DNA of 44,001 nt, the filler included, from Jimgerdemannia flammicorona (taxonomy: Eukaryota): assembly GCA_003990765.1 (NCBI GenBank). It is 2 parts of 2 records of this genome, joined end to end, with 100 filler letters (N's around TTAATTAATTAA, not from the genome) between each part and the next. Parts side by side here need not be neighbours in the genome. Positions count along the whole stretch, not along the records: positions 1 to 21,951 come from RBNJ01001358.1; 1 more part is not named here. One strand, given 5' to 3'. Shown piece by piece: positions 313 to 21,951 of the stretch. How positions within the stretch are numbered: the first letter of the stretch is position 1; each line of letters opens with the position of its first letter. The notes under the pieces are model-generated. The model did no database searches and had not been told where the DNA came from. It worked only from the letters and a program-made list of their open reading frames with translations. Made by a program: the position numbers and the translations under genes.

Positions 313-845
313 ACAAATCCTGTTCACTTTGTCTGTGTCGTCTCCGCTGGAGATATGACGGACGTTTCACTCGGAACTCAAGAAAGCCAACAACGTTGGA
401 GCCAGACTTAAGCCCATCCACATGACAGACATTGTTACTAAGAAATTGCCTCGGATTACAAGTAATACTATTTCCGATGGGTTCGAACCCCCAGCCGCGA
501 CTATGGGAGCCCTCGCCCTAGACAAGGATGGCCAGTCCTCACAAATGCGCTGGCATTCTGCTCGTCCCTGGAGTTAAGACCACCCAACTCTGTGTAACCC
601 TCACCACCGAGGATGGCTCTAATTTTGCAAGGGGCAGATGTGACGTAAGCAAATGACAACAGAGTACCAGTGACTGCTAAGATCAGATGACATAATGGCG
701 TGACAATCAAATAGACAGCCTGACCCATTAGGTGATCATCCCAAAAGAAGACAAGATGATCTGAGCCAAAATGAAGACCACGTTATTTAAGGAACCATAC
801 TCCGCCTCAGGGATCAGCACCAAAGAACCAAGTACCCACCACACA

Positions 846-1832
846 ATGCCTCCCATTCGCCGATCCAACCAGACCTCCCGCCGCTCTACCCCTTTGCCTG
901 ACCCAAAGACCCTGATCTTTGAAGCTATCAAGAAGGCCATCTGGCGCCCAGACACTTCTGAACACTTGAACTTCTACACTGAGGACCTTGGACACTTCAT
1001 CAACTACCGGTATATAATGACCCAACAGCTCAAAGACACTACCGAACGAATGACCCTCTGGCATGACTATGAAATCGGACACCGCCTTCGCAATGAGACT
1101 CAAGAAGGCGACTAGGAAGACCTCATTGCTGAAATGTTAACCACCAGCCAGCTAATCAAGAGAGCCCTCCGTGTCCATCAAATCTTCCACCATATTCCCT
1201 GGGCTATAGCACACTTGCAAGGAGTAACAGCTGGCAGCCTCTCACGCCTTTCAACTGAAGATGCTGACTGGATAGAATCTGAAGTAGCCAACACTATTGG
1301 CAGCAACTGCATCACCGTAGGAAGCCAACAAACCGAACCTACTCAGCCAGGCTTCCACACCACCCCACTCCGAGACAACCATCAAGGTCACCTAATGAGT
1401 CTTATGGAGATATTTGAAGGACCGCCCATCACTATAGAGACACTCGTTGGAGCTACCCCAACCACCCACCACCCTGTCAGCCACAATTCACACCTCATCA
1501 TTTGGGAACCGAATCAAGAAGAAGCCCAAGAAGTTCCTATCTTTGAAGAGGAGGCCCAAGAACTCCAAGACCCTGCCCCTGAAGAAACCCCCTCTGACAC
1601 TGAAACTGACGAGCCTTCAGAAGAAGAAAAGGAGCAACAGAGAGTCTATCAGTCCTCTGTCCACATTCAAGCTGTTCAAGGGTTGGAGAATGTTGTTGAA
1701 GATGACTGGCCACTTTTCTACCCCCTCACCTCTTGGCTGGTGCTTCCCCCCTTTGAGGAGAGATATGACGAAGAAGAAATCACAACCCAGCAAGATTTGC
1801 CCGCCACGGACGAAGGGTACTATTTCCTCTAG
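846..1832 (+). pseudogene. LTR-encoded accessory ORF of element C (~328 codons, one in-frame TAG at 1113-1115), unknown function, acidic C-terminal tail
   Basis: ORFs 771-1115 and 1134-1832 are in the same frame, separated by one TAG. Motifs LIFEAIKKAI / WHDYEIGHRL / ALRVHQIFHHIPWAIAHLQGVT align with ORFs in A and B. Confidence 0.75.
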
Positions 1833-1865
1833 AGTACCGCCCATCAGCTGTGAGAACCCAGCTCA

Positions 1866-2080
1866 TGTCAGCTCATCCGAATCCAGCATTGCTACCCAGT
1901 ACCACCGTTTTCAGCATTTTTGTCAGCAGGTCCGAATTCAGCGTTACCACCCTCCACAACCGTTTCTGGCAACAATCATCGTATTATGTCAGCTCATCCG
2001 AATCCAGCGTTGCTACCCAGTACCACCGTTTTCAGTATTTTGTCAGCAGATCTGAATCCAGTGTTGCTATCCCCTACAAC
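1866..2080 (+). repeat. Imperfect tandem repeats in U3 of LTR C (approx. 120-bp duplication built from ~60-bp subunits)
   Basis: atgtcagctcatccgaatccagc(a/g)ttgctacccagtaccaccgttttcag occurs at ~1866 and ~1987, with related tgtcagcag(g/a)tc(c/t)gaat units in between and after. Confidence 0.8.
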
Positions 2081-2194
2081 CCAATCTGTAGTAAACAACA
2101 GCCTGCACCTCGCATCGTGCAAACCAATAGCATAAGTTTGCCACAACGTAGTATATCTTAGCCTTAGTCACGCCCACCTCCCCCATAGCTAGCA

Positions 2195-2238
2195 AACTTG
2201 TATAAATAACCCATATTCTTAGAGTGAATAAATCTCAG
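2195..2238 (+). promoter_or_regulatory. LTR TATA box (2201-2208) plus AATAAA (2227-2232) core of element C
   Basis: aacttgTATAAATAacccatattcttagagtgAATAAAtctcag; almost the same 44-mer is in both B LTRs on the minus strand, and A shows the same spacing. Confidence 0.7.
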
Positions 2239-2389
2239 CCAGTTTGTGTTTAAAAGTAAAAAAGATTACAGAGAAACCTCACTGCCTCCAAGAGACCGGA
2301 TAAATTCTGAGAACAAGATAACAACCTAGAGCAACGGATCGCTCGGAAGTTTGAGTTAAAGAATTTTCTCTTGCCACGGAAAGAAAACG

Positions 2390-2710
2390 TTACCCGACCG
2401 CCATCATTCGAGACCCGAGACCCAGCCAAGGATTCAAGACCAGACCGCCATTTGGACCGCTATTCAGACTGCGCATTCAGACCGCCATTCGAGATTCAAG
2501 ACCCGAAAAACCAAGGAATCTAAGGATACTCAGCCAAACAAGACCGTAGCCTAAGACCCACCAAGATACCCAAACGACCGCCAAAGACCCAAGTTATCCC
2601 GCTCTTTCAAGCTAAACAAGACGGATGAGCGAGCCGTCGACCGTTTCCCGATCTACTGCGCCACAGACCGTTTTAATTGACCGCATAAAGAGCAAGACCG
2701 TCAAGACTGT
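2390..2710 (+). repeat. Array of short GACC(G/C)-type motifs in R/U5 of LTR C
   Basis: Roughly 20 dispersed (a)gaccg/gaccc/gactg units such as agaccgccatt. Confidence 0.6.
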
Positions 2711-2971
2711 CGCCGCATAAATTCAAGTTTGCCATCAAGTTAATCGCCACCAGGAAACTTAGCCAGCATAATCGCCGCCCTTATCCACTAAACAATTGAG
2801 CCATCATTGAACGATCTCCCGCTATTATTATCGCACGTTTCGAACGACCTGTCATGTGACCATCGACCCGCGAACATCACCAACGCCCTCAGATATACAT
2901 CGTGCACTTCACTAAGTGGCACATTGAGCCGCGCAGTCGAAGTTCATTATACATAACTGACGTCACAATAT

Positions 2972-4869
2972 ATAATACATATGAGGCTTTTAAGAGCTTG
3001 AAAAATATCTGATTATTAACTACTAGACTTTGCCAGATAACCATATACTCTCACTTAATCCAATTCCATTGCTATAGCTATAGCTATCATTGTGCCTTTT
3101 GTAATATATATTGTTATTAGTACTAGTTGTCATTATTTCTAATATATATAGTATAGTATTATATATTATATTATACTAAAATCCATTAGCCAGATGTTAT
3201 CTTCATTATTATTGGCTATGTTAGTATATTTACTAGATATTGTTAGCAGTACCTACACTACTGATATTGTTGGTAGTATCTATGCTACTAATGTTATTGG
3301 CAGTATCTATACTACTGATATGTGGTATTTATTTTACTAATGTTATTGATAATACTCATACTACTAATGTTATTGGTAGTACTTATACTGTTGATATTAT
3401 TGGTAGTACTCATATTAGATACAGATGTCATTTATGGTCACTATAGTTATTGTTGATGTCTATACTTTGGACCTTATTAATATTTGCCTTATCTATACTT
3501 TTGTCTATACTTTTGATATTATTGTTTACATCTTATTACAAGCCATATTGTTGACCTCATTGATATTTTTAGTCTTTTTGGCCTTTTCTATACCTTATCA
3601 GTCTTATTGCTGACCTTATTTGCCATATTAGACCTTGGGTTTGGGTTCATCCCCATTGATCTCATTGCTGGTCTTATATATATTAGTTTCATTAGTCTTG
3701 TCAGCTGGTATCCTTGTTGTCATAATCATTATCTTTAACACCTAGGATGAAGTCTCTGCCATCAGAGAGAACTTTATGCCTCAATCACTTGAGAGGGCTT
3801 TGTAATTACCTCAATACTAGAGAGGACTTTGCCTGCTATCTGAAAGAACTTATAATTGCCTTGAATATCTAAGCAGATGCTTTTATTGTAATCATCTTCT
3901 GCTATTAGAGAGGACTTTATAATTGCCTCAAATATCTGGATGGGTGTCTTTATTATAATCACCTTCTACTACTAGAGAGAACTTTGATATCATTATTAGC
4001 AGACTTCTCTTACAATGGAACTATGTTTTCTGTTACCAGGGGGCCATTATAGAGATATCCATCTTAGTGCTCTGGCTCATACTCATATTCATCAGTATAG
4101 TATATAAACTAGAGATGTTCTAGCTACTAACTGGGGCTTACCACTAACCAGGCTATATAGCTACTCAGTTACTAACAGGGCTTATAATCTGTTATATTAA
4201 ACAGAAGAAGTAATTTATTCAAAATACATATGTTGCATATTTTATATATTATTGATAAATGATATGAAACTGATGGAATAGTATATAGTATAAAGTCACA
4301 TGCCTACATATTGAGTTACTATCCTAACAGACTTCTTGAATGGTGTAGATTCTGTATAATATAGTTGATTTTAGCAGATTTCTCAAATAATGAATAATAG
4401 TAATTTTTAGGCTTAGTTTGATAAGAGGACCAAAATATAATAGATCTCTCAAGTTTAAAATTAATAAACTTCTATAAATAAAGTTATATCAGTCAACTGC
4501 TTTATTTGTATAAATAAGTTTACTATAAATATATATATCTAACTAACTAACTTAATATATCAAATATAGCAGATTTCTCAGATTCTTCTAACTTAATCTG
4601 GTAAGCAGACCAAATCAGTAGACTTTTTTATATTAGAAAGTAGACTGAAGTAGAAAAGAAAGCTTTCAATCTCCTAAGTAATAACTTTAGAGTAGATATT
4701 TCTCTTAAGTATTACAAACTTTTCTGAATCAGATGGTCTTTAGCAGATATATCTTTCAAAGTTATTAGGTAGACTTATCTTTTACTTTTGAACTTTTTAG
4801 ATAAAGATTTATTTACCTTTATTACTAGAGTATTTTATATATCATAATTGCTAGCTGATTACTATATAG
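2972..4869. repeat. Heavily eroded AT-rich, CpG-poor repeat relic that hosts element A and resumes at 21672-21951
   Basis: Essentially no CpG and no credible ORF. Imperfect tandem units occur at ~3220-3430 (tactaatgttattggtagtac-like) and ~3760-3990 (agagaggacttt...aattgcct). Confidence 0.45.
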
Positions 4870-5126
4870 CTAATGTAATGGTGATCTCAGAATGATGATA
4901 TCAGTATAAGAGACAGTCTTTTCTTACAAGCTACCAGATTAGAATATAAGAAGATTATACAGTATGACTCAGGCTATAAGATGAGTAATGATGACTAACT
5001 GTGAGTTATTGTGACTACAGTTCAGGCATCTTGAGGAATATAAAAGAAGGATCAAGGAACTGTAGTAGCAGCAACTCAATAAGACCCACCAATCCCAAAA
5101 TAGCTCAAAGACTTACTACAAATGAA

Positions 5127-5948
5127 ATATCTGCTACTCACCCAATCTCAAGGTCAAGGAACCACCAAGGTACCTCAGTTGAAGAAAGAATATTCCAAAA
5201 CATCAGAAGAGCTATGAGGATCCATATAAGAAGGACTTCTAGCCTCAACATAGGTACTATGGATCCTTATCACTTTATCCTCTACTGTTATGAAATGGAA
5301 ACAAGGATCACTATTGCTACCAAATGTCTCCAAATATGGCAGAAGTATGAAATAGGAAACCTTCTCTGCCAGGAATTCCCACAGGTCAGCTCTCAAGAGT
5401 TACAAGATACCACTCCTATGGATATATACAAAACAATGATAGCAAAGAAGATTCATCAGATCTTCAGACATGTATCATGGTCAATCTCCAACTTGGAGTA
5501 TATTAGAGTCTCAGATTTCAGAGATCTGTCAGCCTACTGTATCAATACACTAGAAGCTAGAGTGACTACAGAAGCCCAGTCCACCATCACTCTCAATAGT
5601 GATGAAGTAGAAGACTTCTGGCATTCCATCCTCCAGGACAATCCAGATCAATTCCTGCAAGGATTGATCTCAGTATTCTAAGGCTCAAGTATCCAGGTTA
5701 GATCTCCCCAAGACCCCATATTTGTTCCTTATTTTGTAAAAGAGAATCTCATGGATTGGAGAGCCCCCAATTTCCCTGCTACCAAATATGATGACATCAT
5801 TGGCAATGACATCATCCTGTATAATATATGTAAAGTATGCAAAATGCACAACCAATGTGATGAGACCAAAACATTCATGAACCTCATCTTCTTTGAGGAT
5901 AGTGATGATGAGGATGAAGCCTCTATAGTCCTGAACATTCTGCTTTAA
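5127..5948 (+). pseudogene. LTR-encoded accessory ORF of element A (~273 codons); second copy in the 3' LTR starts at ATG 13638 and is split by element B
   Basis: ORFs 5001-5681 and 5751-5948 are in frame. The TAA at 5679 is CAA in the 3' LTR copy, and ATA at 5127 is ATG in the 3' copy. Motifs RIFQNIRRAM / WQKYEIGNLL / AKKIHQIFRHVSWSI match the ORF of C; acidic tail EDSDDEDE. Confidence 0.75.
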
Positions 5949-6287
5949 GTCTCTTAGTTATACTAAATTATACCAGTATCCTTTTCCTATATAACAGCTG
6001 TTCTTCCTCCAGCATTCTGACCTTATGACTCAGAATTATTCCAGCACCATTTTTCTGTATTACTGAAATTATACCAACATTCTGAACCTGTGCAACTATC
6101 TGTACTGACCCTGGAACTTAGCAGTTCTCTGTATTTCAGCATTTTTATTTGATTATTGGAATTTATATTTAGCTTTATATCTTAGCAACCATTGAATTAT
6201 ATTTTGTATAAATACCCTTCTTATTTCCTCTGAAATAAAGTCAGTCAAGCTCACTTATATACAATCTCTTATAAGTAATCTAAAGAG

Positions 6288-7444
6288 CAACCTTTTCTCC
6301 GCTACCTTACCAGTCACAAAGTTTGGTAGGTGACCTTCCAAGTCCCCTTTCCCCTAATATTACCCCCCTCTACCTCAGGTTGGTTTGCTGTGCCTGCAGG
6401 GGCATAGTGGGAGGAGGGCAATGGTGATGAGTTGCCTCTTTATTGGTGTCAGATCGGTGCTTTCTCTACTTTTTCGCAGATTCTGGTGCCTTCAACTGCA
6501 TCTGGGGTATACCCGTTTTGGTGCGGCACCTTCTTCCTTTTGCCGATGCCAACAAGGTACTGTCTCGGTGTGTCTCAGGCTATGTAGAGAGTTGGCTGAC
6601 CTTGGGTGTCAAGTGCTCAGTGTAAGTTACCTGCAGGTCCTCGGTGCCTGTGATGGGGCCCTCTGGCTTTGGTGAGCTTCCCGGCAAGCGTGGTTCTGGC
6701 ATAGGTGACTGTTTTTCAGGTGTTGTCGGGATGGGAGGGGAGATGGCCATCACAGATAGGAGAAAGGGCGATTATGGTGTACTAGTAGGGTGCCAGGCTG
6801 GGGGTGGTCATTGGGGCTGGGGCTTCGGTGGGGCCTTTTGATTGGTGTGGCATGGTTAGGTAGTAGGTGTCACTCTCGGCTTCTTTTGGCGATTTGTGGG
6901 GTTGGGCCCTGGTCATTGGGGGGGGTCGGGGGGCCTGAGGCTACCCATTTCAGACATCTTGGCTGCACTCAACTGGAACTGGGAGCTGACACGACAATGT
7001 GATCGAGGCCCACAGGCTTGAGTAGTGGGGTATTGGGGGTCTCCTCCCACCTCATATATAAGTCCTCTACTCACCTCGACTGGGAGAACCAGGCCCTACC
7101 CACCGTGTTGTACTTTGATGAGGGTTTTTTCTTTGCCTGTCATTCTCTTTGGGGTGGCAGGGGCTATTCTATTCGGCTCGAGCATGGCCTTGTACATATG
7201 TTGGGTTCTTGGGCATGCACTTTTGGTCGTTGGTGTATGGCTGGGTTTCCCCTGGTAGTAGGGAGAGCATGGTGCGCAGAATGAGATGCAGGCTACTTTG
7301 CCCTGCTGTGCCTGGCATGGTCAAGCTGCTGGACAATAGCTAGCCTAGGTTAATGGGGGGACAGTGCTTGATAGGTGGTGGGGGAGGGTTTTGGCCTATA
7401 TAGTCTAGGTTCCCTTCCAATAAAAATCCGTGGGACATAGAGTC

Positions 7445-7516
<72 letters not shown>
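6288..7516 (+). mobile_element. Non-autonomous poly(A)-tailed non-LTR retroposon (SINE-like or LINE derivative), ~1.16 kb plus A-tail
   Basis: Absent from the other LTR copy. 15-bp TSD AAGTAATCTAAAGAG (6273-6287, 7517-7531), AATAAA near 7419 and an A-tail at ~7449-7516. Further copies at 22052-22381 and 24321-24384. Confidence 0.92.
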
Positions 7517-7522
<6 letters not shown>

Positions 7523-7688
7523 TCTAAAGAGATAATAAGATAGTTTAAAGATAAGAAGTTTGAGGACTATAAGATCTTGGGAAGGCACTCTAATAAGAAC
7601 TTGCTTATAACAAACTTGAGTTAGTCTAAGAGATATATCTTAAAGAGAATCTGATATATTTGAAGGACTCAGCAACTACTACATGACA

Positions 7689-7710
7689 ACTTAGTGCCTA
7701 TTGGCTGGTG
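7689..7710 (+). promoter_or_regulatory. Putative primer-binding site of element A
   Basis: ACTTAGTGCCTATTGGCTGGT follows the LTR directly. Element B has ACTTGGTGCCCATTGGCTAGT at the same position (20182-20162, minus). The priming tRNA is not identified. Confidence 0.65.
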
Positions 7711-7802
7711 ATTCAAGACAAATCTCTCACTTTTAAACTGAAAAACAAATAACCACTACAACAATTACCTGACTATAAGAGTCACTCCTGCAATAATTCA
7801 AG

Positions 7803-10800
7803 ATGGAAATGTGTCCCCCCACATTCTATAGATATACTACTAAAGAGTCAATCCTGACCTTTATTGAAGACTTTGAACAATTTGCTACCATATGAGCCCT
7901 TGGTGTAGATGCACAATTGGTCCTTCTACCAGTCAGCCTCAGAGGACCTACTAGAGACAAGTTCAATATAGATATTATTGCTAATAATAGTGCAACCAAA
8001 CTTGCCAATATGAAGGCCTTTCTCAGAACAATATATTATACCAAAGAGATCAAGCAAGCTCTCAAGGATCAACTCAACACTATCTACCAGAGACTCAGTA
8101 AAGATCCCAACTCATTCTATACCTAAATCTATCACCAGATTGTCTTGGCTAGCTATGATGATGCCCTCAAGGAACAAATAGCAGATTCAACCTTTTTTAA
8201 AGGAGTTCACTCTGAAATTGCCCTAGAAATCTGATCTATCCCAGCTGCACTAACCCTTGATCAGAAAGTGGTCTTTGCATAGAGATATTAGACTGCCAGA
8301 CACCCTGCTAAATACTCAATGGAGAAAATAACTGGTATCAAGATAGAGCCATCAAAGCTAACCAGTATCATATCTACTACAGTTATAAACAGACAACCAT
8401 CCCCACCTACCCCCAAGACAACCAAAGCTGACCCAGTGGAAGAACTTACTAAGCAGTTCGCCGAGATGACTGTACATCTTTGTGATGTTGTTAGAGAAGT
8501 CCGAAGCACCAACAGGAGACCAGTGCAGAGATTTGCAGTCACTACAGAAGAATATAATATCACATGCTTTAGATGTAGAGAAGAAGGCCACTATGCAAAG
8601 AGTTGCATGACTGAAATAAGATGTAAAGCCCAACCAAGCAATGCTAGCAGAACCAGAGAACAAACCAATACAGTAGTCATCAAGGAGATTGGTGATACTG
8701 ACAATGAAGAATACTATGAGGAGTCTGAATTCTACCTTACTACTGAAGATACCAGAACCTGGTCCAAGCCCTATGACAAGAAGAGCAACAGCAAGCCAGT
8801 TGGAAGACCAAAGAAGACCCCAGCTGTCACTATTCAAAGCAAGATCCAATCTAAGGAGATTGATCAAGATATGGAGTTAGATGAAGCTGTCTGTCAAATC
8901 ATTGAAGGTACTACTTCAGTCTTAGGAGAAAGTGAAAGCAAGAAGGAACAGAAGCTGTACAAGACCAAGATCCACTAGTATAATATCTACAAGGACCTCA
9001 AGGAACAGAAGATCAATGCTACTTTTGGACAGCTAGCCAAAGTCTCTGCCTTCAGATAGCAGTTAAGAGTAGAACTTGCAACTACTGCCAAGAATCAAGA
9101 GTACAAGATTGTAGAAGCTCACAATGCATAAGAAGATGATCAAGAAGACTCAGGTAAAGAATTCAAAGACCAGTGCAAGATATCAGCCTATACTCCATAT
9201 CAGATTGAAGATTATATCTTTAATGTCATCATTGATACCGGTGCTGGAGGATGCCTCATAAATAAGAAGGCAATTGACTGCTTAGGCTGGGACATTGAAG
9301 AGTCCACCAAGATGGTCTATGTTATAGCAGATGATATATAAGCTACCCCTCTTGGCAAAATCCAAGAAGTCCCCATTAAGATAAGAGGAGCTACCATTCC
9401 AGTAGATGTGATTGTTACAAGCACCACTAACTATAACATCCTCATTGGCAACCAATAGCTTCACAAGGCCAAGGCCATCATTGACCTCAATACCCAGAAG
9501 ATGCAGATCAACTATAGAGGAAGAAAGGTACAAGTCTCTATCAATGTCCACAAAGGAGTTCTACTAGATATAGAGAAAGGAGATAAAGAGGACATAGAAG
9601 TCTTCATGCACTTGGTGAATAAGAACAAGAACAAGATACCCAAGCTCACAGATGAGCAGTAGTATAACAAGATCATCAATAGCTATATCTCTCAAGGAAG
9701 ATGCCCCCATGGTACTAGGATGTACTACTCTGAACACCTAAATGACTGCTGGTCCTGTATTAGTGAAGTTAGGAAAATCTTCCAACAGAAGCATGAGCAA
9801 GAAGCTGCTGAAGCAAAAAGGAAAGCTGAATAAGATGACCAGCCCCCAGAGCTTCAAGCTAACAGTGATAATGAGAATAAATAAGAACCAGACATCACCC
9901 TCAAGGTCAAGAAGTTTCACTCCAAAGCCAAGATTCCAGAATACAAGACTGAAGGAGCCATAGGAATGGACCTTGCCAGCATTCAAGATGCTACTCTTGA
10001 ACCACAGACCACCACCCTACTTGGCATTGAAATTGGAGTCAAGTTGCCAGAGAACCATGCCAGAATTATCAAGACCAGAAGCAGTCTGGCCAAAAGTGAA
10101 ATCTCAGTTAAAGAAGGAGTAATTGACTCTGATTATATTGGCAAGATCTTCCTTATAGTCAGGAATCATAACCCCACCACTCTATTTGAAGTCAAGAAGC
10201 ATGACAGGATTGGTCAGATGCTGATCTATGAAATCAAGAAGCTCAAGATCACTGAAGCCATCAAACTCATCAAGACCAAGAGAGGAGAACAAGGCTTTGG
10301 ATCTACTGGAAGAGGAGTCTATGCTGCTATCAAGATTACCAAACTTGAACACAAGAAAGACAGAGACCAGAATAAGCACACATATACCATTAGAGAAAAC
10401 TTTCCCCTGGAAGAACAACTTCTCAAGGTCCTACACTAGAATGAAGAAGTATTTGCTACAGACTTCAGGGATATCCACAATCAAGAATCCAAGTACTACC
10501 ATGAAGTTGACACTGGTGATATCAAGCCTATCTACCAGAAAGCCAGACCTATACCACCTGCCTATAGAGAATGGCTGCAAGCAGAACTCAAGGAAATAGA
10601 AGAAGCCAGAATCATCAAGCAAGCTATCAGTCTCTGGGCTTCACCCATTGTTCTTGCTCTGAAAAAAGAAAGCAAGTCTGGAGAGTTTGTACCAAGACTC
10701 TGCATTGACTATAGGAAGCTCAATGCAATCACTAAGAAGAATAGACAGCCCTTGCCAAATATTCAAGAAATCCTGACCACCCTTGGAAGTAAAGCCAAAT

Positions 10801-11831
10801 ATTATATTACCTTGGATCTGTTCTCAGACTTTCATCAGATTGGTCTCACTCAAGATACCAGTGAGAAATCAGTCTTCATCACACCTGATGCTACCTATAT
10901 CTACCTGCAAATGCTATTTGGAATGTGCAATACTCCAGGAAGTTTTCAGTGAATGATGAACAGAGTCTTCAGCAATGAGATTGGAAAATGGCTCTTTATC
11001 TATATTGATAATGTGATCATCTTCAGCAACACTGTATAGGAATATGTCAACCACATACAGCTAGCCCTCAAGAAGCTCAAGGAGCATGGCCTCTATATCA
11101 AGCCTAAGAAATGCAGGTTTACAGCTCAGGAAATTGCCTACCTAGAACACCTCATCAACCAGACCAGAATCTATACAGACCCCATGAAGATTGAGGCTAT
11201 TGCAGCCTATCTGAGACCCAGAACAACTACAGAAGTCCATGCCTTCCTTGGACTAGCCAGCTACTATAGAAGATTCATCAAAGGATACTCTAACATTGCA
11301 GTACCTATCTACAAGCTACTGAAGAAGGAGACTAAATTTGAATAGACAAAAAAATGCCAAGAAACCTTCAATGAACTCAAGACTAGGTTGACCCAAGCAC
11401 CTATCCTCAGAAGACCAGATTGGAACCTAGAATTCATCCTGTAGACAGATGCAAGTGCTATAGGACTTAGAGCAGTCTTAGCTCAGAAGAAAAATGGATA
11501 TAAATATGTCATCTCCTATACAAGCCAAGGTACTTATAGAGCAGAACAGAACTACAAGTTATATAAGCTTGAATGCTTAGCAGTAGTTTGGGCAGTAGAC
11601 AAGTTCCACTACTACCTAGCTAGGAAATACTTCACTATTCAAACAGACCATTCTGCTCTTGTCTAGCTATTCCACACTCTGAACCCCAAAGAAATATATG
11701 TCAGATAGATCTACAGGCTGCAAGAGTATGACTATACTATCAAGCACCACTCAGAGAGAACCAATACCAATGCTGATGCACTCTCAAGGATACTCCAAAA
11801 CACTCCCATCAAGACTATTCAACATAAATAA
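7803..11831 (+). pseudogene. Element A Gag-protease-dUTPase-RT-RNase H polyprotein (single frame, many nonsense mutations)
   Basis: Zn knuckle CFRCREEGHYAKSC; protease VIIDTGAG (~9225); dUTPase motifs; RT RLCIDYRKLN, LDLFSDFHQI, YIDNV (mutated YxDD); RNase H TDAS..., TDHSAL, NADALSR. All checkpoints share the frame of ATG 7803. Confidence 0.92.
9891..10310 (+). pseudogene. dut: dUTPase domain between protease and RT in element A
   Basis: All five trimeric dUTPase motifs are recognisable: GMDL, RSSLA, GVIDSDY, RIGQML, RGEQGFGSTG. Confidence 0.93.
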
Positions 11832-13020
11832 GGAGTTATACTATGGATTAATCAGCTACCTTAGGCAGCAGAAGATGCCCAACCACCTCAAACTCTGGAC
11901 AATCACCATCATCAACCAGACTTAGAAATAGTTTGAATTAGACAACACCATACTCAAAAAAAGAGGAAAGCTTATAATACATAAATACAAGAAGTATCAA
12001 GTAATGAAAGAAGTACATGAACAAGGATATCTAGGAGGAACCAACATATATGACAAGGCAAGAAGAACTATGTGGTGGCCCAAGATGGAAGAAGACCTGC
12101 ACCAATTTGTCAAAGAGTATAATAAGTGCCAAAAACAGAAATAAGATCAGTAAGACCAGGCACCCAGGTTATCAAGAATTGAGCCTATCCTCTTCCACCA
12201 CATTACAATGGATATCATTGGGCTACTACTAGTAACACTATCAGGAAACTGTTATATTATAGTTATTATAGACCTCTTTACTAAATAGATAGAAGTAGGA
12301 GTATTACAAGAAGTCAATGCCCTCTCTATAGCTGACTTCCTGTACTGAGAAATCATCTGCTGCTATAAGACACCAAGGCAAATTACCACAGACTGCAGTA
12401 TAGAATTTGTCAATAGATTTCATGAGATAATGTATCAGAAATACAGGATTCAGTACATCAAGACTACTGCATACCACTCTCAAGGAAATAGACAGATAGA
12501 AAGAACCAACAAGACTCTCAAGAACATTCTGATAAAGATCTCAGACACATATAAGAATTGGAATAACTACCTTCCAACTGCTCTCTCTATTCTACAAGAC
12601 ATACAGTCATAGAGTATACACTTTACTCCAAGAGAACTGCTCTTCAGAGAAGAAGATTCTAATGGAATCTCAGTCACAAATCTAGACCTAACTTGGAGAT
12701 AGGTTGATGCAAAAATCTGGAGGCTACACCAAATTAGGAAGAAAGCTGAAGATTACATCATCAAGTCACAAATACTAATGAGGAAGAATGCAGAAAAGAA
12801 TCACAAGACCCTAGAACCCATCCAAATTGGAGAAAAGGTCCTACTATATCAAAATATGGTAAAAGCCTCATAGTTACGAAAACTGGAGCCCAAATGAGAA
12901 GGACCCTTCTATATGCAAGATATCAAGAGAATTACCTTCTGGCTTAGAAAAATCTCAGAGACTATACTGCCTACCACAGTATATAGGAATAGACTCAAGA
13001 AGTATCATGAACCTATATAA
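11824..13020 (+). pseudogene. Element A integrase, separate ORF in +1 frame overlapping the RNase H stop
   Basis: (M>I)NKELYYGLISYL...TTAYHSQGNRQIERTNKTLK...KLEPK.EGPF; frame differs from upstream pol; same junction as in B. Confidence 0.88.
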
Positions 13021-13374
13021 GAGAAGTAAAATGTAATGACTGCCCATGAGGTTCTAGTTTGTAAATCATAACAGCATATTCCATAATCAGTAGGCTATTT
13101 GTCTGGACCATTCTCTAAGGGATACGATACCAGCAACTACTTATCTGTGAGACTTTTGAAGCCAGAGGAGTTCAAACCATCAACTAATTGGTCAAGATCA
13201 GAATCAGGCCCTTACTCTATATGAAGGAAATGACCCTTCACCATCATGCCAAAATATATAGAGAAGATGCCAGCCTATAAATACCACTTTTTGACCCCTT
13301 GCCAGAGGTTATGGGATCAGCAAATTTTTCAGAACTAGACTAATGAATAAGGATGTTCAAGAAGATCCTTATTC

Positions 13375-13384
13375 AGGAGGAAGA
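13375..13384 (+). promoter_or_regulatory. Polypurine tract of element A
   Basis: AGGAGGAAGA abuts the 3' LTR; B has AGGAGAAAGA (14411-14402, minus). Confidence 0.8.
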
Positions 13385-13935
13385 TATAATGATGATCTCA
13401 GAATGATAACATCAGTATAAGAGACAGCCTTTCCTTGCAAGTCACCAAATTAGAACACAAGAAGATTATATAGCATGACTCAGACTATGAGATGAGTAAT
13501 GATAACTAACTATAAGTCATTGTGACCACAGTTCAGGCATCTTGAGGAATATAAAAGAAGGATCAAGGAACCACAGTAGCAGCAACTCAACAAGACCCAC
13601 TAATCCCAAAATAGCTCAAAGACTTACTATAAATGAAATGCCTGCTGCTTGCCAAACCTCAAGGTCAAGGAACCACTAAGGCACCTCAGTCAAAGAAAGG
13701 ATATTCTAAGACATCAGAAGAGCCATGAGGACCTATACAAGAAGGACTCCTAGCCTCAACTTGGGTACTGTAGATCCTTATCACTTTATCCTCTACTACT
13801 GTGAAATGGAAATAAGGATCACCATTGCTACTGAATACCTTCAAATATGGCAGGAGTATGAAATAGGAAACCTTCTCTGCCAGAAGTTTCCACAGGCCAG
13901 CCCTCAAGAGTTATAAGATACACTTCTATAGATAT

Positions 13936-14401
13936 TGTAATGTAGCAGATGCTTACTCTTGAAAGTATGTCAGATTTCTGTATCTTGAATACTTGATCTT
14001 TTCTGACTCCTCAGAGTCCTTAGGATGCAGGGGTGGATGAGTTCGAAGTGTATCTGCCTACAGGCTTACTAGTTCCTTTACTATCTCTTTGCTTTTGAAC
14101 TATTTTGATCTGAGGTTTATTCACTCTAAGATACTGAGTTATTTATATAAGTTTTACTAACTATAAGGTGGCTAAATAATGGCTCATTTTGCAAGTGCTG
14201 AATCTTTTAACATCTGCCAAGATTTTGCTGATTGCAAAGATTCTAACATCTCCTAAATCTTTACAAATGTTAAAATTTCTGCACTTTGCAAAATATGACT
14301 GCTATTTATGTGGCTATACTATATTGGGAATCAGATTTAGGTACTGCAATCAAATGTCTAATTCCCCTATTTCATGTTACTAATTCAGATCAGCTGTCAC
14401 A
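13936..14401 (-). repeat. 3' LTR of element B
   Basis: Direct repeat of 20183-20648 with about 30 mismatches by manual count, nearly all transitions. Confidence 0.95.
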
Positions 14402-14430
14402 TCTTTCTCCTGAATAGGTGATTCGTCTTA

Positions 14431-14904
14431 GGAGCATCCTATTCACTTGAATTCCCAGGCTTCTACGATTTGTATCTCCTTATACTGTGTGATCTGCATC
14501 ATTACGTCCTTCCAATGTTGTCTCTTGATGTATCCAAAGTCTCCTGGGGTCACTCCTCAGAAATGGGCTAAGGCTGACTCATCGTCTTTAAATAACTTGT
14601 GCACTCTTTTTGCAATTGTGATCTGAATGTAGGAGAGCTGACATTCTCTGATCCAGTCTTCTTTTCCCATCTTCGGTCTTGAATTCAGTAGCTGTCCCAA
14701 CTTGAAGTATTCCTGGAACTTGGTTCAGTTCTGGTAGGCCTTGAAATGTGAAATTCGTGACAAGTGTGTTTGCACTATGCTCTGGATACTGTCAAAGGAT
14801 TCTTCCATAGTTGGTGGCTCAGTGGAACACCACTGTCTTTCAATGGCTCGCTAGGCTGTGCTAGTAATTCTGAGAGCAGCAGTATTACTTCGTTGGCTGG
14901 TCAT
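14431..14904 (-). pseudogene. Accessory ORF of element B between integrase and PPT (~150+ codons; only TGA/TAG stops, no frameshift)
   Basis: Manual translation: MTSQRSNTAALRITSTA*RAIERQW...KFQEYFKLGQLL...ITIAKRVHKLFKDDESALAHF*GVTPGDFGYIK. The ATG overlaps the IN 3' end. Aligns with the LTR ORFs of A and C. Confidence 0.72.
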
Positions 14905-16087
14905 GGTACTTCTTGAGTCAGTTTCAGTGGATGGTAGTGGGGATGATTGTGCCTGAGAGTTTTCGTAGCCAAAAGGTGATTCCTTTTATATCTTGCATGA
15001 GGTAAGGTCCTTCCCACTTGGGCTCCAGTTTTCATGACCATGAGGCTTCTACCATGTTCCGATACACCAGGACTTTGTCTTCTATCTTGATAATCTCTAG
15101 GGGTTTGTGGGTTTTTTCTGCATTCTTCCATTGTAGTGCCTGCGCCTTCGTTATGTAATCCTCAGCCTTTTTCCTGATTTGGTGTAGTCTCTGTATTTCT
15201 CCATCCACGTGTTTCCATACAGCATCCCCATTAGATGATAGAGTTTCTTGAAAACTTTCTTCTCCAAACAGCATTTCTTGAGAGGTAAAGTGGGTACTTT
15301 GTGATCTGATATCTCGGAGAGCAGATAATGCTATTGGCAGATAGTGATCCCAGTTTTCATAATTATCGCAGATCTTGGCAATAACATTCTTGAGGGTCTT
15401 GTTGGTCCTTTCTGCTTGTCCATTTCCTTGAGGGTGATAGGCTGTGGTCCGAATGTGCTGGATCTTATACTTCTTGTAGAGAACCTCGAAGAACTGGTTC
15501 ACAAATTCTGTTCCTCTATCTGTGGTTACTTGCATTAGAGTCTTGAACTGGCAGATAATTTCTTTGTGGAAGAAATCAGCGATTGACTGTGCATTGGCTT
15601 CCTTGAGGGGTCCTGCTTCTATCTACTTTGTAAAAAGGTCTATGATGACAATGATATAACAGTTGCCAGTCAGGGTCAAGAGTAGAGGGCTGATTACATC
15701 CATTGCTACGTGGGCAAATGGTACTGGTTCTATATATGCTGATCCTGGGGCTTGGTTTTGTTGGTCTTGTTTCTGTTTCTGGCATTTGTCGCAGGTTTTG
15801 ACAAATTGTCTGATATCTTTCTCCATTCCTGGCCACCATATCGTTCTTCTTGCCTTGTCGTATGTATTTATTCCTCCTAGATGGCCGAGCTTGTGTACTG
15901 ATTTCATTGCTTGCTCCTTCTTGTGTTCTGGTATAACTAATAGTTTTCCTTTCTTCAGCATTTGTCCATCCATTTCGAATTGTTTCCATATTCTGTTGAT
16001 AATTATTTGTGTCCATTCTTCCAGATGTTGGGGCATCTTTTGCTGTCCCAGATATGTGATGATCCCATAGTAGAGCTCCTTATTCAT
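14885..16087 (-). pseudogene. Element B integrase, separate ORF
   Basis: MNKELYYGIITYL; HHCC finger HKLGH...CDKC; TDRGTEF, TTAYHPQGNGQAERTN; KLEPKWEGPY. Confidence 0.92.
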
Positions 16088-19000
16088 AATTGATTTGTTG
16101 GTTGGAGGTGTTTTGAGGTGTCTGTGAGAGAGCATCTGTATTGGAATTTGTTCTTCCAGGGCAGTGTACAATGGTTACATCATAGGCTTGTAACTTCATT
16201 ATCCATCTAGCATAGATTTCTTTGGATTGTCCAGTTGTCAGTAGCCAGGTGAGGGCTGAGTGGTCCATCTGAATAGTGAAGTGTCTTCCAGCCAGATAGT
16301 AGTGGAACTTTTCCACAGCTCAGATGACTGTGAGACATTCCAACTTGTAGGATTCGTATTATTTTTCAGCTCCTTGGGTTCCTTGGCTAAGATATGCAAT
16401 GACATACTCTTTTTTGTCTTCCTTTTGAGCTAGACCTGCTCCTAGTCCTTGTGCACTTGTGTCTGTCTGAAGGATAAACTCTTAGGTCCAATTAGGTCGT
16501 CTGAGGATGGGTGCCTGGGTCAGTCTGATCTTGAGTTCATCAAATACTTTTTGTTGTCTACCAGTCTACTGAAATTTAGTGTCCTTCTTGTTGAGTTCGT
16601 AGATTGGTCCTGCAATATTGGAGAATCCTCTGATAAATCTACGATAATAGGAGGCAAGTCCCATGAAGGCTTGGGCTTTCATAACAGTGGTGGGCCTTAG
16701 ATATGCTGCTACTACTTGTATCTTGAGGGGGTCCATATGCGTTCCATCTCGATTGATAACATAACTAAGATAGGAGATCTTGATTTCTGCAAATTTGCAT
16801 TTTTTGGGCTTGATATACAGGCCATGCTTCCTCAGTCTTTTCATTATCTGTCATATATGCTGCAAGTGTTCCTCAGGTGTCTTGCTGTAGATGATTACAT
16901 CATCGACATAGACCATCATCCATCTTCCCATGTCATAGTGGAAGATTTTGTTCATCATTTGCTGAAAGCTTGCTGGTGCATTGCACATCCTGAATGGCAT
17001 TTGTAGGTAGATATAGGTTCTGTCTGGGGTGATGAAGGCTGAATTTTCACTTGCCATTTCTGTGAGTCCGATTTGGTGGAATCCTGAGTATAAGTCCAAG
17101 GTGCTGTAGTATGTGCTTCATCTCCCAGTATTATAAGGATGTCACTGATGAGAGGCAGTGGTTGGCGATCCTTCTTGGTAACTGTATTGAGCTTTCTGTA
17201 GTTGACACAGAGTCTTGGGGCGAATTCTCCAGGTTTGCTTCCCTTTTTTGGAGCTAGTATGACTGGTGAAGACCAGGGGCTGCTGACTTCTTTGATAATA
17301 CCAGCTTCTTCCATCTACTTGATTTCTTCTCTGAGCCATTCTCGGTATGCTGGTGGCACAGGTCTTGCCTTTTGGTAAATTGGTTTGGTGTCTCCAGTAT
17401 CTATCTCATGATAGTAGTGTGGAGTCTTTCCCTTGATATCCTTGAAATCCGTGGTGAGGACATCCTCGAATTCATGGAGTATTTTCTTGAGTTCCTCCTT
17501 GAGTGGAAATTCAATTCCAATGGTGTAACTGTGCCTGTTTGTGATTTCCTCCTTCTTATACTCTAGTTCAGTGATCTTGGTGCTGGCGAATACTCCTCTT
17601 CCTGTAGATCTGAATCCTTTCTTTTCTCTTTTCGTTTCCTCCAAATTCTTGACTTCTATGATCCTTGGTTGTAGGATTGGAAAGATCAACATCTGTGCCA
17701 ATCAGTCCTTCTTCTTGACTGGGAATGGGATTGTAGGATTGTAATTCCTAGCAATGAGCAGGATTTCTCTGATATAGTCAGAATCGATGACTCCTCCTTC
17801 AATCGTAATTTCACTTCTGGCCAGGCTACTTCTTGTCTTGAGGATCCCGACATGATCCTTTGGGATAGTCATTTCCAGTCCAGTTGCGAGTAAGGTGGTT
17901 GTTTGGAGTTCTAGTACAACTTTTTCTACTGTAGCAATGTCCATTCCAGCTGCATTTTCTGACTTGTATTCTGGCAGGACTGCATCAGGGTGGGTCCTTC
18001 AGATCTTGATCTTAATTTCTTCTTCATCATTGCTATCCTCCAGGAGGGCTGGTAGTTCATCATCTTCCTTCTCCTTCTCTTCTCTGATCTGTTTTTTGAG
18101 AGCTTTTTGTCTTCTTTCCTGGTGGATTTTCTTGATTCTGATAGTGCACTGGTAGCAATTGTTGACATGCTCCATACAGTACATCTTGATCCCATGAGAA
18201 CAGACTCCTTGTGGTATATAGCCTTCTGCGATCTTCTTACACCATTCTTCTTCACTCATTTGTCCAACTTTCTTCTTTAGAGTAGTCACCATATAAGCTT
18301 CCTTTTGCTTGTTCTCTTCTTCCTCCATATCAGGCAAGACTCCTTTGTTGACATTGATGGGAATTCGTATTTTCTGTCCCCAGTAGGTGATTTGCATTTT
18401 CTGGGCATTGAGATCAATTACTGCCCTGACTTTGTGAAGCCATTGATTGCCGATGAGAATGTCATAGTTGGTGGCATTGGTTACAATTACATCTACTGAG
18501 ATGGTTGCTCCTCCAATCTTGATAGGGACTTCTCAGATCTTTCTCAGAGGGGTGGCTCTTGTACCATCTGCTGTAATGAAAACCAACTTGGTTGCTTCTT
18601 CAACTTCCCAGCCTAGGCAGTCTGCTGCTTTCTTGCTGAGGAGACATTCTCCTGCTCTAGTATCGATGATGGCTTCAAAGACTCTATCTTCGATTTGGTA
18701 TGTTGCATAAGCAGAAGTTTTGTGATTGTCTTCACTTTCTTCTCCTGAGTCCTCTTGAACATTATTGGCCTCGGTTATCTTCCATCCTTACTCCTTAGTT
18801 GTTTTGGCAAGTCCAAACCTCATTTGTTGTCTGAACGTTGGGATTTCTGCAAGCTGACCAAAGGTTGTATTGACCTTTTGTTGGCTGAGATCCTTGAAGA
18901 TATCGTACTTGAAAGTCTTGGTCTTGCAAAGTTTCTTTTCTTTTTCTCCTTTGCTGGCTGGGGTAGTTCTTTGGATAATATCTTGAACTGCTTGCTCCAG

Positions 19001-20062
19001 CTCCATATCTTGGTCCATCTCTTCAGCTTGGCTTTTGGTGGCTGTTTCTATCTATTTTTCTACTGGGTTCTTCTTGGGTCTTTCTGGTGGTCTCTTGTAG
19101 GGTTCCTTGCAAACATCCTTCTTGGTAGTCTGAGCAGGATAGGCCTCCCATTCTTCTTCATCAGAATCTCCAATTTCCTTGAAGGTAATTGTATTGGTCT
19201 GCTCTTTGTTTCATGTAGCATTGCTTGGTTGAGCCTTGCGCTTGGTTTCACTCATACATTCATAAGAGTAGTGGCCTTCTTCTCCACAGGTATAGCAGGT
19301 ACCTTTCTTCTTGTCCGAGGTGGCGGCAAACTTCTGAACTGGGCAGTAGTTTCTTCCTTGGATTTCTTTTACCACATCTCCCAAGTGGGCGGTCATTTCG
19401 GCAAACCTCTTGGCAAGTTCCTCCATAGGGTCACTGTTCTTTTACTGCTCTGTAGTTTTTGGCTGAGGTGTGTTTCGATTGATCATTGTAGTAGGGATCA
19501 CACTAGTTGCCTTGGGTATTTTGATTCTGACTCCTGTGACTCTTTCCATTGTGTGGTCTTATGGGTGTCTGGCTGTCCAATATCACTGAGCATAGGTGAC
19601 CTTCTGTGGTAGATCCAAGACTACTAGTGATGAATGGATGACCATGGCTATCTCTAGGTGAACTCCTTTTATGAAGGTTGTTTCGGCTACTTGATCTTGG
19701 ATAGCAGCAGCATAATCTGTGAGGATTATCTGATATCGAATTCTGGTATAGAATGTGTTTGGATCCTCACTTATTCCTTGGTATATTGTGTTGAGCTGAT
19801 CCTTCAGGGCTTGCTTGATCTCATCTGTATAATATGTATTTCAGAGCCAGGTCTTCTGTGCTGTCAGTATAGCATTGGCATCATTTCCTGTATGGGTTGT
19901 GGCTGTAAATGCTGCTCTAGCAGGACCTTGTAGGCTGAAGGGCATGAGGGCTACTTGCTGTGCTGCTGTCAGGGTCCTTACAGCAGCATACTGTTCAAAA
20001 TTATCAATGAAGGTAATGATTGATTCATCTGAGGTATACTCATGGAATACTGGTGGTCTCAT
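16080..20062 (-). pseudogene. Element B Gag-protease-dUTPase-RT-RNase H polyprotein
   Basis: MRPPVFHEY start; CYTCGEEGHYSYEC; AIIDT(R)AG; SPWSSPVIL, RLCVNYRKLN, YVDDV; DHSAL, NTDALS; one frameshift near 17115. Confidence 0.93.
17600..18016 (-). pseudogene. dut: dUTPase domain of element B
   Basis: AAGMDI, RSSLA, GGVIDSDY, LAQML, GF(R)STG. Confidence 0.92.
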
Positions 20063-20182
20063 ATCTATTTTTTCTGGGTATTATGGCTCAGTTTGTGTAG
20101 TTGCTCGGGTAGTGGTGGTTGTTTGTTGTTCAGCTTGAAAGTGAGGGATTCATCTTGAATTACTAGCCAATGGGCACCAAGT

Positions 20183-20648
20183 TGTAATGTAGCAGATGCT
20201 TACTCTTGAAAGTATGTTGGATTTCTGTATCTTGAATACTTGATCTTTTCTGACTCCTCGGAGTCCTTGGGATGCAGAGGTGGATGAGTTCGAAGTGTAT
20301 CTGCCCACAGGCTTACTAGTTCCTTTGCTATCTCTTTGCTTTTGAACTATTTTGATCTGAGGTTTATTCACTCTAAGATACTGGGTTATTTATACAAGTT
20401 TTACTAACTATAAGGTGGCTAAGTAATGGCTCATTTTGCAAGTGCTGAATCTTTTAACATCTGCTAAGATTTCACTGATTGCAAAGATTCTAACATCTCC
20501 TAAATCTTTACAAATGTTAAAGTTTCTGCACTTTGCAGAATATGGCTGCTATTTATGAGACTAAGCTATATTGGGAATTGGATTCAGGTACTGTGATCAA
20601 ATGTCTAATTCCCCTGTTTCATATTACTAATTCAGATCAGCCATCACA
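20183..20648 (-). repeat. 5' LTR of element B
   Basis: Partner of 13936-14401, followed on the minus strand by the PBS; TATA/AATAAA core at 20357-20400. Confidence 0.95.
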
Positions 20649-21951
20649 ATATATGCAAAACAAGGACAGCAAAGAAGATTCATCAGATCTTTAAGCATGT
20701 ACCATGATTGATCCCTAACTTGGAGTATGTTAGAGTCTCAGATTTCAGAGATCTGTCAGCCCACTATATTAATGCACTAGAAGCCAGGGTGGCTACAGAA
20801 GTCCAGTCCACCATTACTCTCAATAGTGATGAAGTAGAAGACTTCTGACATCCCATCCTCCAGGACAACCCAGATCAATTCCTATAAGGATTTATCTCAG
20901 TATTCCAAGGCCCAAGCATCCAGGTTAGATCTCCCCAAGACTCCACATTTGTTCCTTATTTTGTGGAAGAGAACTCATAGATTGGAGAGCCCCCAATTTC
21001 CCCACCACTGAACATAATGTCATCAGCAATGACATCATCCCATATGACATATATGAAGCATGTGAAATGCATGACCAATGTGATGAGACTGAAACATTTA
21101 CAGACCTCATCTCTTTTGAAGACAGTGATGATGAGGATGAAGCCCCCATGGTCCTGAACATTCTGCTCTAAATCCCTTAGTTACACTGAATTATACCAGC
21201 ATCCTTTTCCTGTGTAATAACTGTTCCTCTACCAGCATTCTGACCTTGTGACTCAGAATTATTCCAGTATCATTTTTCTGTATCACTGAAATTATACCAG
21301 TATTCTGAATCTGTGCAACCATCTGTGCTAACCCTGGAACTTAGCAGTTCTCTGTATTCTAGCATTTTTATTTGGTTATTGGAATTTATATTTAGCTTTA
21401 TATCTTAGCAACTATTGAATTATATTTTGTATAAATATTCTTCTTATTTCCTCTGAAATAAAGTCAGTCAAGTTTACTTATATACAATCTCTTGCAAGTA
21501 ATCTAAAGAGATAACAAGATAGTTTAAAAATAAGAAGTTTGAGGACTATAAGACCTTAGGAAGGCACTCTAATAAGAACTTGCTTATAACAAACTTGAGT
21601 TAGTCTAAGAGATACACCTTGAAGAGAATCTGACATATTTGAAGGACTCAGCGACCACTATATGATACTAATTATAAAATATATAGTAGAACTAATTTAG
21701 AAAGATGTGGCCTACTATTTATAAGTAGAAATAGTATTGATAAGTAGAAATAATATTTATTAATAGAAATGTATTTTATTCTATTTTAGTATATCAGATT
21801 ATTTATATAGTAAAGTAGTATAAGAGGTAACTATGCTGAGTAACTATACTAGATAACTATTTGTACATCATCTGACTATATTATAATATTTGCTCATTAT
21901 ATCAGCCTCTACTAAAGAATAGTCTGTCCTTAGACTATTCTTTATTTATTA

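Follow-up and report, generated by a model that had tools for sequence, protein, structure and literature searches.

A conserved accessory gene of LTR retrotransposons in Jimgerdemannia flammicorona, located within the long terminal repeat or between integrase and the polypurine tract

Three retrotransposons and their accessory ORFs

The 44,001-nucleotide (nt) stretch of Jimgerdemannia flammicorona DNA analysed here, hereafter the window, joins two parts of assembly GCA_003990765.1 across 100 filler letters, positions 1 to 21,951 being from record RBNJ01001358.1. It contains three decayed long terminal repeat (LTR) retrotransposons, designated A, B and C, each of which carries an accessory open reading frame (ORF) of the same family. 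Judged by its sequence conservation, this ORF is a conserved, element-specific coding gene whose products form a small protein family. In element A the whole gene lies in the unique 3′ (U3) portion of the LTR, the same arrangement is predicted for C, and in B the gene is internal, between integrase and the polypurine tract (PPT) (Table 1).

A and B are bounded by direct LTRs with TG..CA ends, have a PPT before the 3′ LTR and a 4-bp target site duplication (TSD), and encode Pfam domains in the order zf-CCHC, RVP_2, RVT_1, Integrase_H2C2 and rve, features that identify the backbone of both as that of a Ty3/Gypsy (Metaviridae) LTR retrotransposon. A dUTPase domain (PF00692) lies between RVP_2 and RVT_1 in each (A, 9885-10439, + strand, E = 2.5e-26; B, 17702-17998, - strand, E = 1.9e-15). 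The LTRs of A have the ends TGTAATGG...CATGACA, are flanked by the TSD CTAA and are 87-88% identical; those of B have the ends TGTGACAG...CATTACA and, as their identity is higher, B appears to be the younger insertion. Element C is represented by the end of its integrase and by a putative 3′ LTR, whose boundaries we infer from a terminal inverted repeat (TATGACG...CGTCACA) because the 5′ LTR of C lies outside the window. A short purine run, GGAGA, precedes the start of this LTR, and CGTCACA occupies 2961-2967, where the G+C content drops. With these boundaries the LTR of C is about 2.6 kb long (354-2967), outside the range of 1.6-2.3 kb that the initial annotation had given.

The accessory ORFs of C and A, including the split copy of A that begins at 13638, lie where the initial annotation had placed them. 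The ORF of B had been thought to end at 14431; its natural stop is instead the TGA at 14445-14443, which follows the same C-terminal residues as in P0028, an intact B-type protein described below. When the family hidden Markov model (HMM) was run against a six-frame translation of the whole window, only these sites were matched (next best i-Evalue 0.22); as the HMM was built with the window copies included, the scan shows only that no further copy exists. Each premature stop that was checked is one C-to-T change away from the Q or R codon expected from intact relatives, and 107 of the 111 differences between the two ORF copies of A (5127-5948 versus 13638-13935 plus 20649-21180) are transitions. 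Repeats in this host therefore seem subject to a mutation process with a strong bias towards transitions, which would be either similar to repeat-induced point mutation or a deamination of methylated cytosine. The ratio of nonsynonymous to synonymous differences (pN/pS) between these two copies is 0.42, a value that is uninformative as the copies were dead after insertion.

Table 1. Coordinates of the retrotransposons, their accessory ORFs and their regulatory motifs
Feature	Coordinates	Strand	Remarks
A, upstream TATA box TATAAAAG	5039-5046 and 13550-13557	+	88 nt before ORF start
A, accessory ORF copy of 5′ LTR	5127-5948	+	Start mutated to ATA at 5127; internal TAA at 5679
A, accessory ORF copy of 3′ LTR	13638-13935 + 20649-~21171	+	ATG kept at 13638; split by B; stops, frameshift
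A, main TATA TATAAATA, then AATAAA ~20 nt later	6207-6240 (5′ LTR); TATA 21430 (3′ LTR)	+	
A, 5′ LTR	4874-7688	+	Self-blastn and boundary alignments; holds foreign 1.23 kb insert, 6288-7516
A, internal region	7689-13374	+	CCHC gag, protease, dUTPase, reverse transcriptase, RNase H, integrase; many stops (Pfam, translation)
A, PPT AGGAGGAAGA	13375-13384	+	Boundary alignment, motif coordinates
A, 3′ LTR, part 1	13385-13935	+	Upstream TATA; N-terminal part of accessory ORF
A, 3′ LTR, part 2	20649-21667	+	Remainder of accessory ORF; main TATA; LTR end
B, short accessory ORF, 153 codons + TGA	14904-14443	-	Internal TAG 14853, TGA 14727, TGA 14559
B, full Gypsy element	13936-20648	-	Nested in 3′ LTR of A, within accessory ORF; TSD ATAT
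B, LTRs	13936-14401 and 20183-20648	-	466 bp each, 93.8% identical
B, PPT AGGAGAAAGA	14411-14402	-	Directly before LTR start TGTGACAG
B, core-promoter/polyadenylation modules	14124-14160 and 20371-20407	-	Motif matches
C, integrase C-terminal end, last 103 codons	1-312	+	pol stop TGA 310-312; translation, blastp
C, putative 3′ LTR TATGACGG...GACGTCACA	354-2967	+	Terminal inverted repeat; begins 41 nt past pol stop
C, upstream TATA-like box TATTTAAG	784-791	+	62 nt before accessory ATG
C, accessory ORF, 328 codons	846-1832	+	One internal TAG, 1113-1115
C, core-promoter/polyadenylation module TGTATAAATAACCC ... AGTGAATAAATCTCAG	2196-2240	+	Motif comparison with B LTRs and L002
L002 (metagenome contig), core-promoter/polyadenylation module	1210-1260		Motif match

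Conservation of the accessory gene

The homology of the three ORFs, proposed in the initial annotation, is borne out by pairwise comparison of their translations, in which stops were replaced by X. C and A are 29% identical over 219 amino acids (aa; blastp E = 5e-18), and the C-B and A-B comparisons gave E-values of 2e-6 and 7e-4, respectively. Self-blastn of the window detected no C-A similarity at the DNA level.

Relatives were sought in word-indexed searches of 5.8 billion proteins and in a word-free profile search of 1,835,955,588 representative proteins at E ≤ 0.001. In the word-indexed searches, the C query yielded two proteins among 1144 candidates, the A query four among 537, and a 21-row alignment 18 among 4189, the last including P0028, an intact B-type protein of 153 aa. 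P0002, intact and 325 aa long, is 80% identical to C and begins with MPPTRRSNQ at C's own start; A shares 62-70% identity with P0004 and P0005, which are likewise intact. The profile search for family members, which the initial annotation had put forward as a check, found 14 members of 40-342 aa among the 1.84 billion proteins; they are without pol domains and none is long enough for a pol fusion. One scan of JGI metagenome contigs added two loci, L001 and L002, whose intact ORFs comprise, from the ATG onwards, 292 and 323 codons. Intact full-length ORFs (153-342 aa) are thereby known from at least six divergent lineages (P0002/P0008/P0012, P0005, P0016, P0021, P0028, L001 and L002), and the long forms all open with MP followed by a basic Arg/Ser-rich stretch. 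The sources of these relatives are all metagenome collections, in which the proteins are annotated as "hypothetical protein" or not at all.

The family did not correspond to any family in the collections that we compared with it. No Pfam family was matched at E ≤ 0.001, and the six families matched at E ≤ 10 were each matched by at most two of the 21 members. NCBIfam gave no family, and in PHROGs the best E-value was 0.068, with each family again matched by at most two of the 21 members. Among viral contigs, 76 pattern matches included no relative of the accessory family, and a search of the ESM Atlas with P0002 as query gave no usable match.

Comparison of A with L002, whose ORF encodes a protein 55% identical to the A-type P0005, allowed the coding sequence to be set against its surroundings. 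Their blastn alignment is confined to the ORF plus 18 leader nt (L002 51-784, at some 68% identity), and the rest of the LTR is unaligned. Nei-Gojobori estimates for this pair are 0.28 for pN and 0.73 for pS, the latter saturated. The initial annotation had suggested a dN/dS analysis across genomic copies. For the present pair, the confined alignment and these estimates form the pattern expected when a constrained coding sequence lies in an LTR that otherwise evolves fast.

Position of the gene and a candidate promoter

A short module, AACTTGTATAAATAACCC..(~10 nt)..AGTGAATAAAYCTCAG, is nearly identical in C, in both LTRs of B and in L002, while the remaining LTR sequence cannot be aligned. The arrangement in A is alike, TATAAATA at 6207 and 21430 being followed by AATAAA some 20 nt later. 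As sequence reading and motif matches revealed no other candidate promoter or polyadenylation (polyA) signal in the 466-bp LTR of B, we take this module to be the main promoter and polyA signal in A, B, C and L002. In A, the accessory ORF starts 250 nt past the LTR start (4874 or 13385) and its stop at 5948 precedes the main TATA at 6207 by 260 nt. The ORF thus lies between the LTR start and the main TATA, and the gene is wholly contained in U3 and present in both LTRs, as the initial annotation had stated for A and C. The same order recurs on the single LTRs of C (LTR start 354, ATG 846, stop 1832, TATA 2201) and L002 (ATG 69, stop 1040, TATA 1218, with the module 180 nt past the ORF), which suggests that the gene is located in U3 there as well. 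A gene within U3 is duplicated with the LTR at every integration. Between the accessory stop and the main TATA of C there is also a direct repeat of about 97 bp (1865-1961 and 1986-2081; 87.6% identical, start-to-start distance about 121 bp), which may be an enhancer-like duplication.

In B, the accessory gene opens at ATG 14904, in a different frame from pol and 20 nt short of the pol stop, and ends 31 nt before the PPT. It is therefore internal, upstream of the PPT and overlapping the end of pol, and the earlier placement of the B gene between integrase and PPT, next to a 466-bp LTR, was correct, as was the more general observation that the position of the gene relative to the PPT differs among relatives. 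The corresponding part of A, between the pol stop (~13013) and the PPT, is 370 nt of non-coding sequence. The idea of a decayed B-type internal copy at this site was not supported: DNA alignment to B matched only the two ends of this segment, and the family HMM matched nothing in 13013-13384. The long-form gene of L001 may also be internal, as in B, since its stop is followed at 1249-1275 by AAGGAGGGAGGA and TTGTAAT, a sequence resembling the junction of PPT and LTR start in A. By tblastn, no integrase C-terminus was detected upstream of the L001 ORF.

A, C, L001 and L002 also share a conserved TATA box, reported here for the first time, which precedes the accessory ATG by 62-88 nt. The sequence TATAAAAG lies 88 nt before the ATG in both LTRs of A, 80 nt before it in L001 and 65 nt before it in L002; across all 44 kb of the window, the + strand has it at the two A-LTR sites (5039 and 13550) and nowhere else. 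TATA-like heptamers have a density of 1.26 per kb in these LTRs, and the chance of finding one in any 40-nt window is about 0.05. The leader between TATA and ATG is conserved among A, L001 and L002, the stretch before the ATG being AAGACTYACYACAAAY. Together, the upstream TATA, the ORF and the polyA signal suggest a transcription unit contained within the LTR, with the upstream box as a candidate dedicated promoter.

The descent of the gene is less simple than the initial annotation, which described it as vertically kept, had supposed, and vertical retention is not established. The C-terminus of integrase groups A with B (70% identity, against 36% for A-C, blastp E = 6e-21, and 45% for B-C, blastp E = 1.5e-28), whereas by its accessory protein A is much closer to C (70 bits, blastp) than to B (25 bits), and A also shares the LTR location of C. 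These conflicting groupings point to either an exchange of LTR and ORF between lineages or a strong acceleration in the short B-type.

Other features of the window lie outside the accessory genes. For one host ORF, the nearest Atlas clusters are from Ascomycota and Basidiomycota, with scores of 0.90-0.91, weak evidence by which a fungal host is probable. The insert at 6288-7516 in the 5′ LTR of A has no counterpart in the 3′ LTR and terminates in an A run of some 37 residues, and its first 329 bp recur inverted at 22052-22379 with 92% identity, just downstream of A in the window; it looks like a member of a separate poly(A)-tailed retroposon family. Just past the LTR end of C, at 3232-3424, there is an AT-rich array of imperfect 9/27-nt direct repeats. 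Segments 24907-26819 and 30210-32333 are duplicates with 77-85% identity, the second lying within a 1132-codon open frame (29027-32425, - strand), and the first looks like a decayed partial duplicate of a host gene at 29027-32425.

Predicted protein, proposed role and known systems

The long form of the protein, of about 250-340 aa, consists of a short basic N-terminal tail, an all-helical core of about 145 aa, a conserved module with the pattern DNPDQFLxGL..FxGPPI and a tail that is long and acidic. The B-type form, short at 153 aa, corresponds to the core alone. The N-terminal tail, where present, has a net charge of +2 to +4 in most members, the core is about neutral, and the acidic tail carries -9 to -24, in keeping with what was first noted from the DNA. 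Within this tail, the hydrophobic motif DLISFED and a terminal VLNFLL are conserved across A-type proteins, L001, L002 and P0016. A derivation of the FxGPPI module from the GPY/F C-terminal domain of integrase was considered and rejected (hhalign probability 0.25%). Among five intact members the highest 19-aa Kyte-Doolittle mean ranges from 0.19 to 1.07 and the N-terminus is not hydrophobic; no segment resembling a transmembrane helix or signal anchor was found in them by this measure, and the initial view of the ORF as lacking a signal peptide and transmembrane helix, and so not env-like, stands.

AlphaFold2 modelled the full A-type protein P0005 with a mean predicted local distance difference test (pLDDT) score of 70.6, the N-terminal two-thirds being confident and the tail disordered (pLDDT <50). 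The core of L002 (149 residues, 19-row alignment) was modelled with a pLDDT of 91.3 and a predicted template modelling score of 0.84, as seven helices, one of them 37 residues long. Foldseek searches of PDB with both models, and a search of BFVD, gave no match at E ≤ 0.001, and the predicted helical core may represent a fold that is not yet in PDB. Below the noise level of the tool, helix-turn-helix (HTH) domains of the ParB family made up seven of the 50 rows listed for the core, all over the same model range, 54-140 (VirB 3.8; SopB 3.6 and 2.7; P1 ParB 3.4; KorB 3.1 and 3.0; Spo0J 2.8), and five of the 50 listed for the full-length model. The top BFVD row, likewise below noise level, was a phage DUF3102 protein (E = 0.35). 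We treat an HTH-like, nucleic-acid-binding core, as these models might indicate, as a lead only.

We give an even chance to the reading that the accessory ORF is a U3-borne gene with its own promoter, that its product is a nuclear nucleic-acid-binding regulator, and that its position has been shifted by a change in plus-strand priming. The gene would be transcribed from its own TATA (TATAAAAG in A, TATTTAAG in C) and its transcript would end at the polyA signal of the same LTR, the resulting mRNA of about 1.1-1.5 kb lying wholly inside one LTR. Each LTR would then be a self-contained unit of promoter, ORF and polyA signal, in principle including solo LTRs. The product would regulate the element's own expression from the nucleus, and we favour a trans-activator, whose core would be HTH-like and whose acidic tail would serve in activation; this is the weakest step of the proposal, since the role is deduced solely from the architecture of a basic N-terminal tail, a helical core with weak HTH-like resemblance and an acidic tail. 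Finally, the gene would enter or leave the LTR when plus-strand synthesis came to be primed from a different purine tract.

Several points weigh against this proposal. The core of the long forms has an isoelectric point of about 5-7 and is not basic, which is unusual for simple DNA or RNA binders. When the family profile was compared with all PDB chain sequences at E ≤ 10, no ParB, KorB, SopB or VirB chain was returned, and the only rows were those of BUB1-beta (E = 0.03-0.08). The dedicated promoter is deduced from motifs, and the upstream TATA of A, L001 and L002 may reflect shared ancestry instead of independent retention. In B the counterpart of TATAAAAG sits in the integrase codons D-I-K, which are shared with the integrase of A, and need not be a promoter. 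The LTR status of C depends on a single LTR. Moreover, every copy of the accessory gene in the window is dead, and these copies do not themselves demonstrate a current function.

A more specific version of the proposal is possible yet doubtful. Here, each LTR would be an autonomous gene for a sequence-specific DNA-binding trans-activator of the main LTR promoter, setting up a positive feedback like that of Tas; solo LTRs would supply the factor in trans, and PPT shifts would again move the gene.

We consider it unlikely that the protein is instead a post-transcriptional factor resembling Rev or CERV, made from a spliced subgenomic mRNA of the main LTR promoter and binding unspliced genomic RNA (gRNA) for export, stability or packaging. 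The conserved upstream TATA would be superfluous for such a gene, and acidic tails are found more typically in activation domains than in export factors. The Arg/Ser-rich N-terminus, exemplified by MPPTRRSNQTSRRS and MPAARQTSRSRNH, would however suit an RNA-binding factor of this type, and the gene lies at the 3′ end of the gRNA, either in U3 of the 3′ LTR or just before the PPT. Precedents for splicing also exist, as the ORF3s of LTR retrotransposons are described as typically coming from spliced messages (excerpt of PMC5408684), and CERV of the element Cer1 as the product of a spliced mRNA, required for the export of gRNA (excerpt of PMC10309623). The leader conserved before the ATG in A, L001 and L002, AAGACTYACYACAAAY, could be an acceptor region, but inspection of L001 and L002 by eye, no splice-site scan having been run, revealed neither a pyrimidine tract nor a branch point of convincing quality ahead of the ATG.

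Less probable still is a protein directed at the host, which would counter silencing or bind a host factor, with the acidic tail and its terminal motif (..DEDEAP.VLNFLL) docking on a chromatin or defence factor. The short linear motifs kept in a disordered and very acidic tail in A-type proteins, L001, L002 and P0016, where the model has a pLDDT below 50, are what such docking would call for, and the 107 transitions among 111 differences imply a strong C-to-T process on repeats, escape from which would benefit an element. Against this, the tail is missing from the B-type protein, which is no more than the core, and so cannot be the functional part common to all members. The idea has no known partner to build on and is pure inference.

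It is improbable that the gene is passenger cargo, that is, a captured fragment of a host gene hitch-hiking without a role in the life cycle of the element. LTR retroelements do capture foreign ORFs (in the portions cited of PMC5408684 and PMC6431247), and the dUTPase of these same elements is presented as one such acquisition (in part of PMC2864245). A host-type paralogue was nevertheless missing among the 1.84 billion representatives, where all 14 matches are short, stand-alone members, and the named sources of the relatives are all metagenomic and carry no label beyond "hypothetical protein". The gene has also been kept in many divergent lineages and in two positions, with a conserved start and with pN well below pS. 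The idea that there is no gene at all, and that conserved non-coding LTR sequence is open in one frame by chance, might draw on the stops in all window copies and the frameshift in the 3′ LTR copy of A, but it is effectively refuted by a C-A similarity that exists only at the protein level (blastp 5e-18, none by self-blastn), by multiple intact ORFs of 250-340 codons elsewhere, by a core modelled at a pLDDT of 91 from only 19 sequences, and by window stops that are each one C-to-T change from the expected Q or R codon.

If the gene is indeed borne in U3 with a promoter of its own, as proposed above, a "complex" regulatory organisation would have evolved independently in intracellular retrotransposons that lack env, and LTRs, including solo LTRs, would be potential protein-coding units that current genome annotation masks. 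It would also provide a concrete case of a gene moving across the PPT boundary. The family itself adds an unannotated group of proteins whose fold is confidently predicted and, as modelled, unmatched.

Accessory genes within U3 are considered characteristic of the complex retroviruses (mouse mammary tumour virus (MMTV), lentiviruses and foamy viruses), with MMTV sag, lentiviral nef and foamy bet as known examples of U3-overlapping genes. MMTV Sag is a type II membrane glycoprotein of a mammalian retrovirus. Like sag, the accessory gene is a complete ORF within U3, duplicated in both LTRs and located at the 3′ end of the gRNA; unlike Sag, its product has no hydrophobic segment or Pfam match, its host is probably fungal and the element has no env. 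The internal promoter of foamy viruses lies in env. Extra ORFs of plant Ty3/gypsy elements were reportedly described by Steinbauerova in 2011.

Extra ORFs as such are well known in LTR retrotransposons (portions of PMC5408684, PMC3485330, PMC6431247 and PMC10309623), among them the ORF3s of bdelloid rotifers (PMC5408684, in part) and ORF0 of the plant element Retrosat2 (PMC3485330, in part). As far as these excerpts go, the accessory gene resembles them in being lineage-specific, of unassigned function and kept across related families; it differs from Retrosat2 ORF0, which lies upstream of gag-pol (PMC3485330, in part), in that it appears to lie wholly inside the LTR in three lineages. Full-text searches, from which subscription journals were largely absent, gave no account of fungal LTR retrotransposons that carry a protein gene in their LTRs, and none of the accessory family. 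A dUTPase between protease and reverse transcriptase, as in A and B, is known from basidiomycete Gypsy elements such as PosPlaTy3-5 (portion of PMC2864245). The legend of Figure 3 in that paper lists, for some fungal elements, an "add. ORF" whose function is unknown, which may bear on the novelty of the accessory family, and the part of its text that was available makes no mention of an ORF inside the LTR (PMC2864245).

CERV, the accessory protein of the Caenorhabditis elegans Ty3/Gypsy element Cer1 (excerpt of PMC10309623), is similar in kind, as both are non-env accessory proteins of novel sequence that a Ty3/Gypsy element carries beyond gag and pol, and CERV regulates the RNA of its own element. 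According to the same excerpt, CERV is encoded by a spliced mRNA and its action is in the export of gRNA, which sets it apart. The closest analogy to the proposed mode of action is offered by foamy viruses, in which the regulatory genes tas and bet at the 3′ end are under a second, internal promoter, and Tas activates both promoters (portions of PMC8670036 and PMC13220597). The candidate promoter described here differs in lying in U3 and not in env, and both it and trans-activation are putative. If the proposed architecture holds, the accessory gene would nonetheless be analogous to tas and bet in combining a position at the 3′ end, a TATA box of its own and a product with a nucleic-acid-binding core and an acidic tail.

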